Below, piece after piece: positions 1 to 15,000 of a DNA stretch of 19,614 bases; within the stretch, counting starts at the first letter, position 1, and each line of letters begins with the position of its first letter. The DNA comes from Microcoleaceae cyanobacterium (GTDB lineage Bacteria; Cyanobacteriota; Cyanobacteriia; Cyanobacteriales; Microcoleaceae). Position numbers: made by a program. Location of the stretch: the NCBI GenBank assembly GCA_051652765.1, contig JBOFUV010000094.1, positions 1 to 19,614 on the forward strand. The letters run 5' to 3'.

Positions 1-3000
1 TTGTCATGGATTCAGCTTTTTCTCTGAAGAAATCAAGCCTCTTTAAGTTTTCAGCTCTGAGCTTTTTGCTTTTACCCGCCAAAGATCCGCCAATAGCAAT
101 GAGCATCCAGGCCAATTCACGCTTTCTCTCTTCATCCAAATCAACAAATTTACTCATCGGTTTCCTCTTCTTCTATTACCTTGAGATCAAACTCAAACCT
201 TGCCTCTTTAATCCCACCAGTAAGAATATTCTCGATCATCTCAGCAATTCCATCCGCAAGCTCTCTTATAGTGTGACTACCTTTAATTGGAGCAAATTCT
301 TTAATCAAAGCTCCAGACCTGATAACTATTTTTGACATCCTCTAATCCTCTTCATTTGCTTAACAACTTTCAATCCAAATTCCATGCCCTGAGCCCTTTC
401 AGGGCTACAGCGCTTTCTTGAAGTGTATCCAATCAAAGCATTCCAGAATCCAGTTGTCCATTGATGATGGTCTGCTAGTGAGTTCCTAACTGGATTAATT
501 GCCCAAATGAAGCAATAGAATTCATGATTGTCATAACCCGTCAAAGTTGGCTGATCGCCCTTGATTTTTTTCCTAGCCATAAACTGCAAACTACTTTTTA
601 AAAAAACTACAAGGCCCTCCCACCGGGTGAGAGGGCTGTTGAAATTAGGCAACTATTGCCAGTGGCATCTCATAGCTTTTAAGCAAACATGAACTGCCGT
701 GAGCAGTAGTAAAGTAATGATTGAGTTCTTCCCAGTCTGAATACTCCTGAGCTTCCATACCATCCCACTCACGACGGTAGAGAAATAACAGCAGGCCGTT
801 AATGTGCTTTTTCAGGGAGTGATTATAGCCTTGGCACAAAACCACCTCAGGCTGATAGCCAAGCTTAGCAACCAGATTAACTGCATCAGTCAGCGATAAG
901 TTGTCCAGGTGATTGATCAAGACGTAGAGGCTAACCTCTCCCTGACTCATGGGCATTAGGTCGTTATGAATCGTTATCGTCATCGTTGATCCGTTCAATG
1001 CATTCATGTCTGTTAGTTTCCTCGTTAAATCGAATAGCGTTTCCTTCACGGGACTTGCAGTCCTCTAGCAAAATATTGTGCCCGATCGTGTTGAGCCTTT
1101 CGTCATATTCTTTGACTTTTCGGTATGGGCCAAACTGATCCTCTTCAATTTTCTTGTTGCTCATCAAACAAATTTCCTCATTATGATTTGTGAACGTCAA
1201 CAACCAGGAACCAGCTTTTAGCTTGCAGCTCCTGGCGCTGACCTATGGCGATCGCCGTTTCCGAGACTCAGCCTTCAACACCTCAGCAGCTAGGGTTTTA
1301 ATCTTAAAAGTCATTTCCCGGCCCCTTGCTTTGAGATCAAACTTGTACCCGCACTTGGGACAATTCGTCAAATTGATGACCATTTCCATTCGACAATTTG
1401 GAACCGGACATTGTTTGAAAACCTGTCCGAATGGACGTACTCGTCTCTTCATAGCGATCAATCATCTCCTCAATTTCAGATGGTGTGTACTCAAACAAAC
1501 GGAACCAAATTAAGGCATATTGCCTGACTTCCTCCTCAGTAAGCTGATAATGGTTGACAATGTTGACGGATAGTTCACCTGACGCTAGACTTAGTTCCAT
1601 GCTTCTTACCTGCAATGAGAGCTGAACAAGGCTGTCTGATTCACAGCCTTAAATTTTTGAGATTTTCCGTTCAATGCATCTGTTTCCTTTGAGGAAGGCC
1701 CCCGGCAATCGGGGGTTTTTCATTGGAAAAAATGCAGATATTCAGAGAATCAAAGTGTTCTGTATTGAACTGCTGGAGCAACGCCCGGTCTTTCTTGATA
1801 ATTCAAGATTTTTCAGGAACGCCCCCGCCGCAAGTGATTGAACGGCAAGGGCAAAGCGGATATGCAGTATACGAACGCTGTAGCTAAAGCTTGGTTCATA
1901 ATTTTCGTCTAGGCTACCTCTCTTTAAACTTACACGTGTAAGTTATATAAGTGCTATAGTTGCACGTGTAGACAATTCTGTCAACAAATTTACACGTGTA
2001 ATATTTAGGAAGAAGAGTTGTGATAGAAGATGAACGAAAAGAAACGAGGGCCAAAGCCAAAAGGGAAAGTCCTTTTCAACCTGAGTCTGGAACCGGAAGC
2101 GAAACAAGCTCTGATAGAGAAAGCTCAGGCAGTGGGGAAAAAGCCATCCGACTTGGTAAACGAGTTCGCCAAATCCGGGTTGCAATCTATGGAATTGGAG
2201 CATTTACTGGGGGAATCATTGAGCAAACGCTTGAGCAGCTTAAAGAGCGTTTGCGAGAATACGACGACTGCATCGTCTGGTACGTGCAGGCCAAGCAAAA
2301 AGCACTAAAACAAATAGAAGCTATGGAGAAGCTTCAGACTGAGTTTGCCGAGAAAATGAGCCAATTTGAAGAAGAATAACCACCCAGCAAGCACCTTAAA
2401 TATTTGAGGTGCTTTTGATTTGTCAGGTTCTAGGCTACTTCTCCCAGTGCTGCGATCGCCGGAACTAGCCGGATAAAAATTCGGTGTGTTAGTCAGGTTC
2501 GTTTAAATGTTTATCATTTTTCAACAAACACCGCACCTCACTTAATTCATGATTTAATCTGCTTCATCTCCCCAAGAAATCCTTTCTCTCCAAGAACTGA
2601 CAATGACAACCCAACTTACCTTACCCCTCAGCAATCATGCTTACCACCCCCCCTGCAATCACTAGAGAGTGGGATGAGCCAATCATCATTAAGGCATTGG
2701 AAGAGAATCCCGGCCTCACTCACGAGCAACTCTTAAAGCTCCTCAACCAGGATCGCCCCTCCCCCATTTCCGCCGATCAACTCAGAAGATTTATCTCTCA
2801 ACTCGAAAACGAAGGGAAGGTTGGGCTGTGTCAAACAATTCGTCCCCCAAAAAAAGAAGCACCGAATCAAAGTTTTGGAGGACGAATTAATTTAAGAGTC
2901 CATTGGGCCAAGGCAGGCGGCAAGGCCAAGGGGGATCATAAATATCCCTGGCTGTATGAGGGTAGCAAACCAATTAAATATATCGGAGGTGGAAACGAAA

Positions 3001-12000: not shown

Positions 12001-15000
12001 TATTCCCACTGCTCAATTGGGTGATATATTCCAAAACAAACCTACTACGCCTTAATCGTCATGAGCTTGGCTGATGAAACTCGTTGGTCAGTTTTTTACG
12101 AAACCGGGAACATCACTCAACCTCAGGGGAAAATATTGCCAATCCAAGTATTTTCCCCTTTAACATCTAAAGTCATCAGGGTTACCGCTCACTCAGTCAT
12201 AGTCCGCCCGGAATGGTACACAGCAGGCTACCTGTCACACCGACTCACGCCAGCTCCTGTTGAAGCCCCCAATGTTGCCGTTCAGGTTCAGAGTGACAGA
12301 ATCGCTCTGAATGTAAAGCAGATTCTATTTCTCGAAAATGTAGAGGAAAAAGCCTATCTAGTATTCTTCCCTGTTAAGTGGTTAACCAGTCTCAGTTTGG
12401 CGATTGAGCAGTACCAATAAAAATCAATAAATTTCAAGCTGATTGAACTTTAGATCCTTGAATCATGGATGCTTTAGCCCAAGTTGAATTGATGAATAAT
12501 TCTGGCTATTTTAGTCTCGAATTTGGCTTGTTCCTAAGGAAATTGTGCGCGATCCTCTATGCGATTCAAATCGTTGAGGCAATTCTTTTGGCTTACTTCC
12601 TTTGGGCGAACAAGCGACGATCTGCCTATCGCTCTATCGCTTTATTTATGTTGTTGCAGGCAATCGGAAATCTTTACCTCGTCTATTTGCTTGTTGACTA
12701 TTCCCCAGTGAGACTTGTGAAATTTGCGTTCCTGCCCTTGGCGATCGCCGTCCTATTGGCGGATATCACCGGGGGCTTTGTTATTTTGATGATTCGAAGA
12801 GAGTCCCGTTTAGCGAGGAAAGCATGATCCTGCTAGATGTTCAACCAGTGCCCCAGCAGCAATTTGATTCAGACTACTTTCAGTTTCTGGCACTGCTAGC
12901 AACTTCAATCACGACACTGGTTGGGACAGGGCTAACGATTTGGGCTGGAATCATTAACAGAAAACAAGAGAAGGCGGTTCAGAATGTTGAATCCATTGCC
13001 CAGGAGCGTGAGCGACTAGAGAAAGCTGCTCATATCTATCGCAATGCTCTAACCCTCATTAGAGGAAATCTCAGCACTATTTCCTACTACCAAGGGGATG
13101 ACAGCAAGGAGATCAAGATTCTAAGAACTATAGACGAGACCATTCATCAAGCTCTACTCAAGGGCGATCAATTTATTGATTAGTTTATGAAAAAATATGA
13201 AAAAAATTGACTTACAGGGTAAAGAAGTTGGCTTTTACCTATCCGTTCCTTTCTATAGTCAGCGAGATAATGCGATTCAGTGGTGGCGAACCTGCAATAC
13301 GTCGAGCTGCGCCATGGTTGCCGAATACCTAAAGCCGGGATGCATCGACAATTCAGATGATGAATATTTCAGACTAGTGAAACAGTACGGTGATACCACA
13401 GATCACCAAGCTCACACAGCCGCATTGAACGAAATAGGCATCAAATCAAGCTTCTGGACAAACCTAGATTATCAAGACTTGGACAAGCAACTGGAAAAGG
13501 GTCATCCAGTTGTAATTGGAGTGGCGCATCGAGGAGCCGTTGAAGCCCCTCAGGGAGGGCACATGATTGTGGTTATAGGGAAATATAAGAAGTTGGGGAC
13601 AGAGAAAATAGGATACATCTGCCATGACCCTTGGGGGGAAGGTTTTGGCGCTCATTACAACCTAGGACTTTCAGGAGAACGGGTGACCTATCCCAAATCA
13701 AGCCTTGACAACCGATGGCTTTGTGAAGGGAACGGATCTGGATGGGGAAGAATTTTCGAGGCATAATGCTTTTTTGCCTACAAGAAAAACTGTGGGGATT
13801 CTGCTAATGTAACTTACACAGAGTGATGTCTGCCGAAGGACTCTTTTGAGTTTTGTTGCAATGACCACCCCGTCTGAGTCAGTTTTATCCCCTAATAATT
13901 GGCCATTTCTGCTCGATTTACTACCCCAATCTGCCTATTTAGTGGGAGGAGCGGTCAGAGACGGCTTGCTTTCCCGTCGGTCAAAACAGTTGGATTTGGA
14001 CTTTGTTTTGCCAGAGCAGGCGATTAAAACGGCCCGCCGGATTGCTAACTATTATAAAGCGGGGTTTGTTTTGTTGGACGCGGATCGTCAGATTGCCAGG
14101 GTTGTGTTTGGAGCAAAGTCAGGGGGAGCAACGGTGGATTTTGCTCAAATGGACGGAGAGACTGTAGAGCAAGATTTACAACGGCGGGACTATACTGTTA
14201 ACGCGATCGCCTACAATCCATTCACTCAAGAGATTATTGATCCGCTGCAAGGACAAGCGGACTTGCAGCAACGGCTGATCCGCATGGTTTCCCGCAAAAA
14301 TTTGCAGGATGATCCGTTGAGATTGTTGAGAGCTTACCGTCAAGCCGCACAGCTTGGATTTCAGCTTGAGCCTCAAACCCAAGCCACTTTACGTCAGTTG
14401 TCTCCGTCGCTGCCTCAAGTGGCTGTGGAGCGGATTCGGACTGAATTGAACTATTTGCTCAATCTCCCGCAAGCCACTCCTTGGATTCAAACAGCCTGGG
14501 AAGACGGCTTACTTGCCTTATGGTTTCCCCAAGCCCAGCAGCACTTTAATCGGTTAGCAGCCCTGGATCAGGTAGCAACAGACTTAGTTCAAACTTGGCC
14601 TCAATCTAAACTAACGCTGAAGTCAAAGCTGAATGCAGATCTAAGAGACACAATTAAAATTTCTCGACTCGCCGTTGCTAAATTGGCCACTCTGCTCACC
14701 CCCAATCCTAAAATTGCTGAACTGGAACTGGCCCAGTTAAAATACAGCAAAGTAGAATCCCGCAGTGCGATTCTCCTAGTGAGAAACTTGCAGCAAATTC
14801 ACCAGGTTTCCCCAGAAGATATGACCCTGAGCCAGCAATATCTTTTGTTTAGAAATACAGGAGATTTATTGCCCGCTCTCGTCGTTATGGCTATTGCAGA
14901 TGGTCTGACAACGGTATCAGTTTCTCCTTTAATTCATCGTTATCTCACTCCGGGCGATCCAGTCGCCCATCCCATTCCTTTAATTACTGGAAAAGCCCTA

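Follow-up and report, generated by a model that had tools for sequence, protein, structure and literature searches.

A virus-like element of a filamentous cyanobacterium, apparently inserted by a bridge RNA and an IS110-type recombinase

Organisation of the locus and of its sister copies

The stretch of DNA analysed here (the window; 19,614 nt of contig C94 of a filamentous cyanobacterium) contains 13.8 kb of a 15.7-kb integrated mobile element, followed by host DNA (Table 1). The remaining 1.9 kb of this element, referred to as copy A, lies outside the window on contig C84. An earlier note on this DNA had remarked on the scarcity of known genes and, in fact, only 2 of the 19 scanned element ORFs of the window belong to a Pfam family at E ≤ 0.01.

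Table 1. Features of the window and extent of the three element copies.
Feature	Position	Strand	Remarks
86-aa ORF, start (MSKFVDLDEERKRELAW...)	1..157	-	continues to C84:100-~200; stops just short of bridge-RNA region
62-aa ORF	150..338	-	no assigned function
108-aa ORF	326..652	-	no assigned function
134-aa ORF	645..1049	-	no assigned function
92-aa ORF	1337..1615	-	no assigned function
Palindrome TTACACGTGTAA, two copies	1921..2010		inverted repeat in divergent intergenic region
119-aa ORF	2020..2379	+	weak relatives in both other copies (29-36% identity)
172-aa protein	2637..3155	+	most conserved across the three copies (80% and 60% identity)
Short tyrosine recombinase, 191 aa	3329..3904	+	catalytic domain only; PF00589, E 6.5e-39
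88-aa hydrophobic protein	3904..4170	+	
342-aa fibre-like protein	4218..5246	-	six 57-nt (19-aa) repeats of phage tail-fibre type
191-aa ORF	5191..5766	+	relatives in copy B and locus L031
317-aa protein	5777..6730	-	N-terminal beta-sandwich, residues ~35-130
303-aa protein	6737..7648	+	family-wide; residues 8-198 modelled as viral-type single jelly roll; adjoins 609-aa gene
K1, 609-aa core protein	7664..9493	+	variable N-terminal part, proline-rich linker; C-terminal ~280 aa conserved, helical
K0, 528-aa core protein	9490..11076	+	glycine-rich hydrophobic N-terminal segments; element-family marker
Three small structural-module ORFs (80, 182, 119 aa)	11200..12420	+	
Two membrane proteins (120, 119 aa)	12465..13183	+	hydrophobic
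C39-like cysteine peptidase endolysin, 189 aa	13197..13766	+	Peptidase_C39_2, E 1.9e-11; phrog_10051 endolysin, E 2.2e-54
Element end, lysis side ("left end" in recombinase orientation)	13790..13801	-	GAA-TCCCCACAG on minus strand
Host left target half	13802..13807	-	TTAGCA on minus strand, then core GAA; equals left target guide UUAGCA-GAA
Host cca (tRNA nucleotidyltransferase)	13846..15138	+	beyond element
Copy A	C84:100-2021 (reverse) + window 1-13798/13801		~15.7 kb
Copy B	C92:100-~1855 + C87:1-~15538		~17.3 kb
Copy C	C116:~34571-45078 + C19:85-~2572		~13.0 kb

Searches by blastp and tblastn inside the genome agreed with the earlier description of three syntenic, strongly diverged blocks, on C94, on C87 and on C116 joined to C19, with 22-80% amino acid identity per gene; the overlap by which the last two contigs had been joined is also real, the end of C116 and the start of C19 sharing 84 nt with one mismatch. 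The limits of the blocks, instead, had to be redrawn. Copy A had been taken to start at base 1 of C94 and in fact crosses the contig end into C84, the end of copy B moves from 15321 to ~15538 of C87, and the start of copy C from 36250 to ~34571 of C116. The first 99 nt of C94 and C87 are identical to the starts of C84 and C92, which identifies an assembly junction, and it is because copies A and B do not differ over these 99 nt (100% identity) that the assembly breaks at window position 1. The pairing of C94 with C84 is based on this common contig end and on synteny in relatives, rather than on a spanning read. Neither a circular junction, an empty-site read, a transcript nor a particle was observed; the sole sequencing run listed contained 5% of the sampled words, as contigs.

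Copy A is inserted exactly in the spacer between ycf34 and cca, genes that are separated by 45-105 nt in relatives and whose spacer is intact in 10 of the 11 relatives' loci. This empty site fixes the junctions as CTCTCCTTTC|ATCTTACG and GGGGATTC|TGCTAATG, which share only the 3-nt core GAA, and it is for this reason that a previous 13-mer scan for att sites had found none.

In the left arm, the small ORFs between 150 and 1615 read toward the recombinase end, and the first two of them (150-338 and 326-652) are 69-70% identical to copy B. The palindrome pair may represent an operator-like site of a genetic switch; regulators of the Cro/CI type, with an HTH, are encoded in 4/4 smaller relatives. 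For the 172-aa protein no family was found, and among the 23 loci compared it clusters only with this genome's copies.

Structural block and lysis cassette

The 342-aa protein matches phrog_14 (E 5.8e-30), phrog_9574 and phrog_988 and, judging from its sequence, is a candidate receptor-binding protein; fibre-type domains found in relatives are the Peptidase_S74 chaperone, the Phage_tail_C tip domain and collagen repeats. The 191-aa ORF and the fibre gene lie back to back, the former probably starting near 5245.

The 317-aa protein had been described as two jelly rolls and as a capsid candidate. The AF2 model obtained here from three sequences did not reproduce the former, having a mean pLDDT of 52.7 and only residues ~42-126 at 62-87, which form one small beta-sandwich. 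This domain matches the Ena1B pilus subunit (Z 10.0) and the PM2 spike P1 (Z 8.6, rmsd 3.0, 84 residues aligned), that is, it is akin to vertex/spike and pilus jelly rolls, and in the comparison of 23 loci the protein forms a cluster confined to the three copies of this genome. On this model it is a candidate vertex or spike protein and, by the clustering, specific to the lineage; the conserved jelly-roll gene is the adjoining one, encoding the 303-aa protein. Jelly rolls are known also in tail tips, cement proteins and pili. In the 303-aa protein the domain is modelled with confidence (pLDDT 82-93, excluding the C-terminal third of the chain); at E ≤ 1e-3 its Foldseek matches in PDB number 10, all of them chains of virus capsids or polyhedrins, and a further 175 were obtained in BFVD at the same threshold, though the matches are middling (best VIA, Z 7.6; every one below 8). 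On the basis of this model, the 303-aa protein is a candidate major capsid protein.

Since relatives of K1 bear collagen repeats, the protein is suggested to be a trimeric fibre or spike with its C-terminus as anchor. K0 has no family and no solved relative that could be found, only a weak match to the tape-measure family phrog_4200 (E 0.0076), and neither K0 nor K1 has a match in 50,697 phage records searched by tblastn. The trio of small ORFs that follows is present in 4 of the 23 compared loci, its 119-aa family in 8.

The lysis cassette reported previously is confirmed, with two small hydrophobic ORFs, by position and hydrophobicity presumably holin-like and spanin-like, preceding the Peptidase_C39_2 protein. 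In relatives the lysis enzyme is exchanged among six types, namely C39-like, M23, phage lysozyme, CHAP, GH19 and M15.

Recombinases and bridge RNA

Two recombinases are encoded by each copy. The short tyrosine recombinase, previously reported in two of the three, is present in all (191 aa in the window, 207 aa in C87 and 196 aa in C116), the window's being too diverged to match the others, and it recurs in 7/7 of the bridge-bounded relatives described below and on two circular plasmids of the family. Its presence on circular plasmids makes it unlikely that this enzyme is the integrase, as it had been read before; we propose that it resolves circular multimers or has another accessory role.

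The second gene, missing from the earlier picture of the integration machinery, encodes an IS110-family DEDD recombinase of 416-478 aa and is found at the same (far left) end of all three copies; that of copy A (478 aa) lies in its C84 part. The three copies of this gene are the only ones in the genome, all inside these elements, and their identities of 79% and 27% follow the divergence pattern of the remaining element genes. In an alignment of 21 recombinases, D9, E81, D124, D127 and S320 are invariant columns, and their profile matches two IS110-family transposases of solved structure, ISCro4 (E 1.2e-5) and IS621 (E 8e-5). PF01548 is detected in 19 of the 21 members and PF02371 in 13, with scores mostly under the gathering cut-off, and the copy A recombinase has no Pfam match at E ≤ 0.001.

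Directly upstream of the recombinase gene there is a non-coding block conserved at the nucleotide level in all copies, in which we identified a candidate bridge RNA (~130 nt in copy A) comprising one target and one donor loop. Folding of 17 sequences gave a consensus of 15 pairs, of which 9 show compensatory changes, and in the minimum-energy fold of the copy A RNA the target guides lie opposite one another in a 7x7 internal loop. Guide 1 of the target loop reproduces the host DNA on the left side of the insertion, followed by GAA, and guide 2 is complementary to GAA plus the right host sequence; in the donor loop, guide 1 equals the element's last bases plus GAA and guide 2 pairs with GAA plus its first bases. 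In copy A three of these matches are exact (TTAGCA-GAA, GAA-AGGAG and AAGAT-GAA), and the fourth, GAA-TC-CCCA, at the element end GAA-TCCCCACAG, pairs with the right donor guide UGGG(U)GA-UUC with one bulged base and spans only 5-6 bases past the core. Both copy A junctions, set independently by the empty site, are those written in the RNA loops. The guides of copies B and C fit likewise, each to its own differing flanks, with one target guide of copy C agreeing at 4/6 positions by identity.

The same rule was applied to other genomes. The predicted right junction (at most 2 mismatches) was found in 8/11 loci, mostly at the recombinase stop codon, against 6/110 with swapped guides, and the predicted left junction in 7/9 loci, 8.6-17.6 kb upstream, against 0/72; as the left sites were located by guide search, it is the swapped-guide control, and not the match, that carries the test. 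The DNA between the predicted junctions, about 10-19 kb, encodes the short recombinase in 7/7 loci and, in several, members of the K1, K0 and jelly-roll families; it is the same element family.

Distribution of the family

Of 401 genomes sampled from the order, 75 have marker genes of the family, and the compact element content recurs in 46 of 143 genera sampled. The same gene order, with a module-swapped endolysin last, is present in 20 loci from other genomes. Marker genes are also carried by two circular, non-mobilizable plasmids of 20.8 kb; the one of 20,757 bp bears the core trio (K0, E 3e-69; K1, E 2e-38; jelly-roll family, probability 99.7%). Some relatives have primase-helicase genes of a kind common in satellites (DUF3854+VapE, DUF5906), and two, L045 and L035, have full-length tyrosine integrases with arm-binding domains.

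Nature of the element

We consider it somewhat probable that this is a virus-like element put in place by an RNA-guided bridge-RNA recombinase, its cargo being probably the genome of a small temperate virus. Insertion is apparently due to the bridge RNA and the IS110-type recombinase, rather than to a classical phage integrase. The element would circularise by fusion of its ends at GAA; the complex of recombinase and RNA would pair the circle junction with a chromosomal site picked by the target loop, and strand exchange at GAA would insert the whole 13-19-kb genome without long att sites. The regulatory arm would combine operator-like palindromes with the short tyrosine recombinase, which probably resolves circular multimers, and the structural block would provide the fibre, the vertex-like protein, the candidate capsid protein with the jelly roll and the large core proteins K0 and K1, while the holin-endolysin cassette, placed last, would serve release. 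The earlier proposal of an unclassified, small, tail-less temperate virus holds to the extent that these are discrete mobile elements of one family, phage-like in lysis genes, fibre, Cro/CI regulators and jelly roll; the tail-less virus, and virion formation with it, stay an inference, since a terminase, portal, HK97 or double-jelly-roll capsid, packaging ATPase and replication protein were recognised neither in the window's element nor in 150 ORFs of 10 related loci or in 73 ORFs of 4 smaller relatives.

This lack, together with the non-mobilizable plasmids, the missing homologues in phage records and the satellite-type primase-helicases, would also suit a non-viral cargo, in which an "expanded" IS110-type insertion sequence moves a plasmid-like or defective block and the lysis and beta-sandwich genes have a task other than virions, for example in freeing a bacteriocin-like or adhesive structure; alternatively, the element would be a satellite needing a helper phage. 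Expanded IS110 loci with cargo of up to ~100 kb, mostly plasmid-like and with some phage matches, have been described (10.64898/2026.08.14.744561). We regard this explanation as rather unlikely, since the ordered gene block with its swapped endolysins last is kept in 20 loci of other genomes, the Cro/CI-type regulators, fibre-repeat proteins and capsid-type jelly roll make a coherent virus kit, sizes are confined to the range given above (20.8 kb for the plasmids), and no helper-interaction genes were recognised.

We give very little credence to a classical prophage integrated by its tyrosine recombinase, with the IS110-like gene as a chance neighbouring insertion sequence. A Phage_integrase-family gene is present in each copy and L045 and L035 have full-length integrases; however, the IS110-like recombinase and its RNA lie within the limits of all three copies, with the same divergence pattern, and are absent elsewhere in the genome, the two empty-site junctions of copy A are those of the RNA loops and have just 3 nt in common, and the tyrosine recombinases of 191-207 aa consist of the catalytic domain only and occur on circular plasmids too. 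Equally improbable is a tailed-phage remnant or tailocin-like cluster that has lost head and packaging genes, to which the tail-fibre-type repeats, the weak tape-measure match of K0 and the tail-tip and fibre-chaperone domains of relatives would point, given that ~240 scanned ORFs contain no tail tube, sheath, baseplate, portal or terminase family, that the element ends are precise and guide-specified, and that the recurrence of the compact content across genera and on circular plasmids is at odds with independent decay.

Comparison with known systems

The virus-like element shares with IS621 and ISCro4 a DEDD RuvC-like domain and a Tnp domain in which a serine is conserved, a non-coding RNA that has target and donor loops and lies 5' of the gene, one guide per loop sense to one strand and one complementary to the other, and a short shared core without inverted repeats or long duplication (PMC11208160, PMC11208158). 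It differs in the moved unit, a virus-like genome of 13-19 kb instead of ~1.3-1.5 kb, in the RNA and recombinase lying at one extreme end, 8.6-17.6 kb from the opposite one, and in the distant proteins, mostly under the Pfam gathering cut-off. Moreover, the core is GAA here and CT in IS621, and one base is bulged out where the right donor guide pairs.

Expanded, cargo-bearing IS110 loci are likewise bounded by an IS110 recombinase and a bridge RNA, and their boundaries often keep one canonical donor match only (10.64898/2026.08.14.744561); similarly, the recombinase-side end here fits its guide better than the far end. Their cargo is described as mainly resistance, metal-detoxification and plasmid DNA acquired piecemeal, and cyanobacteria have 0 occurrences in the main text of that preprint (10.64898/2026.08.14.744561), whereas the cargo here is one coherent set that is syntenic from genus to genus and brings its own modules for lysis and structure. 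Neisseria Nf/MDA phage and Thermus phiOH16, Zuza8 and Zuza27 also have an IS110-family transposase at one end of the provirus, where it is presumed to carry out their integration and excision; the parts of the reports drawn on here describe no bridge RNA or guide-junction match (PMC7058167, PMC11437467). These, however, are inoviruses of ~8 kb extruded without lysis, while the present elements have a lysis cassette and a jelly-roll protein, and neither a Zot-like assembly ATPase nor a small coat gene was recognised in them.

With PM2-like Corticoviridae and other Vinavirales proviruses (<16 kb) the family has in common a size of 10-20 kb, integrated and episomal circular forms, a lysis module placed last and a ~300-aa jelly-roll protein adjoining a ~320-aa protein with a PM2 spike P1-like domain. 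In contrast to them, the window's element has no FtsK/HerA-type packaging ATPase that could be found, one jelly-roll domain, rather than a double jelly roll, in the confidently modelled part, no sequence relationship of K0 and K1 to phage records, and in these two largest core proteins no identifiable counterpart there. Small tail-less prophages with jelly-roll capsids have been reported to be common yet overlooked (PMC11630473). The elements presented here form a widespread, undescribed family with a jelly-roll protein of virion type.

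Limits of the elements and their place in the genome

Contig C94, to which the window belongs, is one of the 158 contigs of a 5.04-Mb genome, and its positions 1-13766 hold about 20 tightly packed ORFs. Only two of the 19 element ORFs scanned in the window carry a Pfam family, namely a 191-aa tyrosine recombinase and a C39-like endolysin, and in the PHROGs scan a 342-aa protein strongly matches a tail-fibre repeat family (phrog_14, E 5.8e-30). The earlier note had described two further syntenic blocks, on contig C87 and on C116 joined to C19, and searches within the genome (tblastn/blastp) bore this out, with 22%-80% identity per gene; these last two contigs share an end overlap of 84 nt with 1 mismatch.

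C94 and C87 start with an identical stretch of 99 nt, the reverse complement of which starts C84 and C92, an arrangement that reads as a two-in, two-out assembly junction. Past this junction lie a 478-aa ORF on C84 and a 416-aa ORF on C92, each with an IIGLDVG start and each followed by host genes; on C116, a 426-aa homologue, 79% identical to that of C92 and 27% to that of C84, is found directly left of the block delimited in the earlier note. In 10 of 11 relatives' loci a ycf34-like gene, which on C84 follows the 478-aa ORF, is divergent from cca at a distance of 45-105 nt, and we therefore infer that C94 joins C84 and that the element sits in the ycf34/cca spacer. Since this pairing leaves no other partner, C87 would join C92 by elimination. 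The three elements are referred to as copy A (the window and its part on C84), copy B (C92 and C87) and copy C (C116 and C19).

The locus of the closest relative (L007, G002:C90:23929-28203) differs from the other 10 in that cca has no ycf34-like gene within 1.5 kb, and other DNA may have been inserted there at the same spacer. An 86-aa ORF runs across the junction (window 1-157, minus strand, into C84:100-~200); it is 100% identical in copies A and B over the 99-nt repeat and contains a Walker-A-like string, GGSLAGKS, while being too short for a usual P-loop ATPase.

Alignment with the relatives' spacers sets both junctions of copy A independently of the RNA guides described below. On the C84 side host sequence ending in CTCTCCTTTC is followed by ATCTTACGAC, and at window 13801/13802 the element ends in CTGTGGGGATTC and the host resumes with TGCTAATGTAAC. 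The two junctions have only TTC (GAA on the other strand) in common, and copy A is thus delimited to about 15.7 kb.

Coordinates and sequence patterns of the features discussed in the text
Feature	Location	Strand	Size or pattern
317-aa protein gene	window 5777-6730	-	317 aa
303-aa protein gene, jelly-roll family	window 6737-7648	+	303 aa
K1, core protein gene	window 7664-9493	+	609 aa
K0, core protein gene	window 9490-11076	+	528 aa
Host genes cca, comF-like, proA, tldD-like	window 13846 onward		
Target module of the bridge RNA			GCTT-[7 nt]-GAA-(A/G)TAAGC ... GCTT-[6-7 nt]-TTC-A.AAGC
Donor module of the bridge RNA			CTTA-[5-7 nt]-GAA ... hairpin ... [7 nt]-TTC ... AAG
Hammerhead-like motif	L067:1997-2090, directly 5' of the bridge RNA	minus	
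Same motif, equivalent place	10 other recombinase loci: L065, L069, L071, L074, L075, L078-L082		
Circular plasmid with the core genes	Tolypothrix sp. PCC 7601 unnamed14		20,757 bp
Circular plasmid with the core genes	Allocoleopsis franciscana PCC 7113 pMIC7113.08		20,803 bp

An IS110-family recombinase at the left end

The ORFs past the junction belong to a recombinase family that has exactly three members in this genome, one per element, and that was detected in 101 of the order's 401 sampled genomes (E<=1e-10). The Pfam families DEDD_Tnp_IS110 and Transposase_20 are matched below the gathering cut-off in two of the three copies, the copy A protein reaching only E 0.0039. In a 21-sequence alignment that includes homologues from other genomes, D9, E81, D124 and D127, which we take to be the catalytic DEDD residues, are invariant, as are S320 and G321. 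The profile of this alignment matches the solved ISCro4 (9t56, E 1.2e-5) and IS621 (8wt6, E 8e-5) over the RuvC-like domain. PF01548 is detected in 19 of the 21 members and PF02371 in 13, the latter being absent from the copy A recombinase at E<=0.01. Judged from these alignments, the protein combines the DEDD RuvC-like N-terminal domain of IS110 recombinases with a Tnp domain carrying the conserved serine.

A predicted bridge RNA upstream of the recombinase

A block of ~200-330 nt upstream of the recombinase is conserved at the nucleotide level across the three copies, whereas the flanking genes are not, and a small ORF that runs across the contig end stops just short of it. Adding 14 further loci to the alignment separates the region into two modules, which we call target and donor (see the table). 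RNAalifold predicts, from the 17 sequences, the outer stem of the target module and both stems of the donor module, in a consensus fold of 15 pairs of which 9 show compensatory changes and two are altered on both sides in seven sequences each; the inner stem of the target module (AAGC...GCTT) was recognised by eye only. When copy A is folded at minimum energy, its two variable segments lie opposite one another and form a 7x7 internal loop. The models therefore predict a structured non-coding RNA with two internal loops beside the gene; Rfam contains no family matching the window or the other element loci of this genome at E<=1.

At one locus from another genome (L078:1958-2087, minus strand) GAA has become AAA in both sense guides and TTC has become TTA in both antisense guides, all together, so that the core position next to AA appears to be coupled across the loops rather than simply paired with DNA.

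Guides and junctions in this genome

In copy A, where the junctions are known from the spacer alignment, each of the four loop segments can be read against the DNA. UUAGCA-GAA equals the left host flank TTAGCA followed by GAA (window 13807-13799, minus strand), and CUCCU-UUC is complementary to GAA followed by AGGAG in the right host flank (C84:2022-2029). AAGAU-GAA equals the last bases of the element, AAGAT, followed by GAA (C84:2017-2024), and UGGG(U)GA-UUC pairs with GAA followed by TC-CCCA, the first bases of the element (window 13801-13793), given one bulged U.

Copies B and C have their own guides and their own flanks and fit in the same manner: CAUAGG-GAA stands against CATAGA-GAA and AAUAUU-UUC against GAA-AATATT in copy B, and UAAGUA-GAA against CAAGTA-GAA in copy C, in which the other target guide matches at 4 of 6 positions by identity. 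When the flanks were permuted, none of 20,000 permutations reached the observed total, a figure biased, except for copy A, by the use of the guides in selecting the sites. Around a short core, the guides of the loops match the target flanks as well as the ends of the element, the right donor guide doing so with a one-base bulge.

Empty sites for copies B and C were not found in the relatives, in which the synteny around these two copies is not conserved, and their limits consequently rest on the guide matches and on the homology of the ends. The guide-based search places the end of copy C 3-4 nt past the endolysin stop codon on C19 and the right end of copy B at C87:~15538, an earlier placement at C87:~15365 having been rejected; with the ends set in this way the two copies have the terminal sequence GAATCGTTAGG in common. 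About 170 nt inside the guide-specified end of copy B, at C87:15357-15368, there is a motif like the end of copy A, AATCCCCACTAC (minus strand), which looks as if left over from an earlier end or from a swap of the integration module. The host flanks of copy B (C87:15379-15529 and C92:1876-1978) belong to families of short repeats with members on several other contigs (77-94% identity), and this copy may have landed in or beside repeated intergenic elements. In our model, integration specified by the bridge RNA would account both for the break of the assembly at the element and for the absence of detectable att sites.

Guides and junctions in other genomes

The four guides were also read for 11 recombinase loci from other genomes. 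Allowing <=2 mismatches, 8 of the 11 contain the right junction that their guides predict, mostly overlapping the stop codon of the recombinase, against 6 of 110 when the target guide was swapped between loci. A search of the 1 kb upstream of the gene did not show the left junction predicted by the bulged model; over 20 kb it was found (<=2 mismatches) in 7 of 9 loci, at a distance of 8.6-17.6 kb, against 0 of 72 with swapped guides and an estimated chance rate of ~0.005 per locus. As the junction sites were located by means of the guides, it is these swapped-guide controls that carry the weight.

The elements bounded in this way measure ~10-19 kb. The seven loci so bounded in other genomes all enclose the short tyrosine recombinase of the family, and several enclose K1-like, K0 and jelly-roll-family genes. 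This enclosed cargo argues that the recombinase lineage is the integration module of the element family and would, in the loci that could be bounded, integrate this family rather than travel alone.

A hammerhead-like motif 5' of the bridge RNA

The motif listed in the table has the form CCGC-CUGAUGAG-hairpin-CGAAAC-hairpin-GUC|GCGG and contains every core element and the three stems of a hammerhead. The strict core (CUGAUGA...GAAA...UH) is located upstream of 11 of the 18 recombinase loci from other genomes and is absent from copies A, B and C, in which CUGAUGA and GAAA...UU|GCGG are kept with an insert of ~45 nt between them. Rfam returned no hammerhead at E<=0.1 across the 18 loci; the best score was that of RF03152 (20.7 bits against a cut-off of 56.3), a sub-threshold match to the RAGATH-1 hammerhead in a 146-nt stretch. 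The motif could trim the bridge RNA at its 5' end.

The pattern CCGCCTGATGAG-N(8-30)-CGAAAC recurs in at least 125 stretches of IMG/VR contigs. Among the 80 IMG/VR loci fetched with their flanks (L097-L176), only one, L162, has the recombinase family downstream, so that this exact form is common in viral contigs in other contexts; the 23-kb record of L162 gave no match to K0 or K1.

Gene content of the family and its plasmid relatives

Among 401 sampled genomes of the order, 75 have relatives of K0, distributed over 46 of 143 genera. In most of 20 fetched loci K1 and K0 are adjacent, and these loci have a gene of 240-370 aa before K1 and, after the pair, small conserved ORFs and a peptidoglycan hydrolase whose type varies by member (C39-like, M23, phage lysozyme, CHAP, GH19 or M15). 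Some members have full-length tyrosine integrases and some DUF3854/VapE primase-helicases; a Peptidase_S74 fibre chaperone and a phage tail-tip domain are each found in one member, K1 carries collagen repeats in two, and all four smaller members encode Cro/CI-type HTH proteins. Two K0 genes with identical scores, 21.5 kb apart in another genome (G118:C35:139218-140510 and 160708-162000, the first in L034), could represent a tandem pair of elements.

The core genes also reside on two circular plasmids (see the table). On that of Tolypothrix, K0 has 34.6% identity over 86% of the query (E 3e-69), K1 has 34% identity over 244 aa (E 2e-38) and the gene before K1 matches the family profile with 99.7% probability. 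A short tyrosine recombinase is encoded by both plasmids, whose annotations list no IS110-family gene. The existence of these 20.8-kb episomal relatives points to integration being optional for the family and to exchangeable integration modules, whether tyrosine integrase or bridge recombinase.

None of the sequence-profile scans of the family recognised a terminase, portal, HK97 capsid, packaging ATPase or replication initiator. K0 and K1 had no match in 50,697 phage records (tblastn), the K0 profile matched nothing in the PDB at E<=1, and the ESM Atlas gave no usable match for the 182-aa protein. A role of the short tyrosine recombinase as an invertase was considered and rejected, no convincing inverted repeats being present around the fibre and 317-aa genes (best pair 25 nt, 76%). 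By eye, a helix, NP.N and short strands are seen in the 80-aa protein (window 11200-11442) and in both halves of the 191-aa protein (window 5245-5766), as in NPDNRTLITNISIGADG against NPKNVNIINFTIRDDG, and the two proteins may have a repeated small domain in common.

Capsid and spike candidates

The fold models described here were built on shallow alignments. For the 303-aa protein only two relatives are detectable in 1.84 billion representatives (HMMER), a word-index search found the protein itself only, and the ESM Atlas gave only unnamed cyanobacterial clusters; a profile of the protein and one relative matches the family of the gene before K1 with 92% probability. Its AF2 model, from a 14-sequence alignment, has a mean pLDDT of 69.7, with residues 8-198 at 82-93 and residues 199-303 below 50. 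All 10 Foldseek matches in the PDB at E<=1e-3 are either baculovirus polyhedrin or capsid proteins from small icosahedral viruses, with a tymovirus coat protein ranking first (3.0e-4), and the BFVD yielded 175 matches at E<=1e-3, many of them capsid proteins. In VIA-align, where all Z scores are below 8, the best match is the cement protein of phage KHP40 (Z 7.6, rmsd 5.3, 122 aligned), along with the coat protein of satellite panicum mosaic virus (Z 7.0, rmsd 3.8, 133 aligned) and the lambda tail tip (Z 6.7). On the basis of these comparisons residues 8-198 are modelled as a canonical viral-type jelly roll, which makes the protein a candidate capsid subunit.

The 317-aa protein, compared over 23 loci, clusters only with the three copies of this genome, and a pattern scan of the genome contigs with its alignment matched 42 stretches, none of which was confirmed by tblastn. 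Its AF2 model, from three sequences, is poor and offers one usable domain, which resembles endospore-appendage subunits (Z 10.0, rmsd 2.8, 89 aligned), the PM2 spike P1 (Z 8.6, rmsd 3.0, 84 aligned) and also cupins; the protein is a candidate for a vertex or spike. To the eye, the 317-aa protein has an N-terminal sandwich (IWITNTTDQPLLIFVG...PITLMPGASL) similar to the C-terminal part of the 303-aa protein (FLITNNSDYPVYFGY...GIEIKPRERF), and a domain may be common to these divergent neighbours.

Comparison with known systems

Bridge-RNA recombination by IS110 elements is already known (PMC11208160, PMC11208158). In general, IS110 bridge elements are compact, ~1.3-1.5 kb with recombinase and RNA only, whereas the elements described here reach ~10-19 kb, a size that fits the "expanded", cargo-bearing IS110 form of a 2026 preprint, which reports loci with cargo up to ~100 kb (10.64898/2026.08.14.744561). 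According to two further papers, filamentous phages of Neisseria and Thermus have an IS110-family gene at one end of the provirus (PMC7058167, PMC11437467). Inoviridae in general have a Zot/pI-type ATPase, a small hydrophobic coat protein and extrusion without lysis, while the window element has no ATPase family in the Pfam/PHROG scans and carries a holin-endolysin cassette.

The large terminase subunit, portal and HK97 capsid that mark Caudoviricetes were found in none of the 19 window ORFs (Pfam/PHROG profiles), and their Pfam families are absent from 150 + 73 ORFs of relatives searched with sequence profiles. In comparison with double-jelly-roll viruses (Corticoviridae/Tectiviridae-like, Bamfordvirae), the 303-aa protein has one confident roll and matches single-jelly-roll capsids. 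These viruses also have an FtsK/HerA-type packaging ATPase, whereas none was detected in the window's element (Pfam/PHROG), in which Walker-A-like strings occur only twice, in the 86-aa ORF and in a frame that has stops close by; the Tolypothrix plasmid encodes a P-loop protein of 396 aa that weakly matches FtsK and DUF87 (E 2e-4 to 4e-4, below the cut-off).

Our literature search found neither a description of this cyanobacterial gene family, nor a lysis-competent, jelly-roll-encoding provirus-like family with junctions specified by a bridge RNA, nor a bridge RNA preceded by a hammerhead-like motif.

A proposed life cycle and its implications

Starting from the observed element limits, recombinase family, RNA architecture and guide-junction matches, and with the details of the IS621 mechanism as general background, a life cycle can be proposed. 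The element would be excised as a circle joined at GAA and would be inserted, under guidance of the RNA, at the site named by the target loop; the palindromes at window 1921-2010 may act as the lysogeny switch, and the short tyrosine recombinase may resolve multimers. The jelly-roll protein, the fibre, K0 and K1 would assemble into a small, probably tail-less particle, to be released by the holin-endolysin cassette.

There is a substantial chance that the cargo represents a new virus family. The fuller reading is put forward tentatively, as somewhat less probable than its opposite: an undescribed family of small temperate cyanobacterial viruses with a jelly-roll capsid and no recognisable packaging ATPase, portal or terminase, in which a bridge RNA, rather than a protein-read att site, chooses the site of integration, the three copies being products of retargeting. 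If this is true, few base changes in one RNA loop would retarget a provirus.

Here a bridge-RNA recombinase would, in nature, move a complete virus-like genome of 13-19 kb with all four guide-site relations readable from sequence, and the integration sites of the family would therefore be predictable from the RNA alone. These enzymes would be natural large-cargo recombinases and possible tools for genome writing. The cargo gene set is not recognised by current phage libraries and also occurs on plasmids of culture-collection strains; the question is open to bench work, as there are episomal relatives in culture, in Tolypothrix sp. PCC 7601 and in Allocoleopsis franciscana PCC 7113. If virions are made, the family would be a common group of cyanobacterial viruses that is invisible to standard prophage and virome pipelines.
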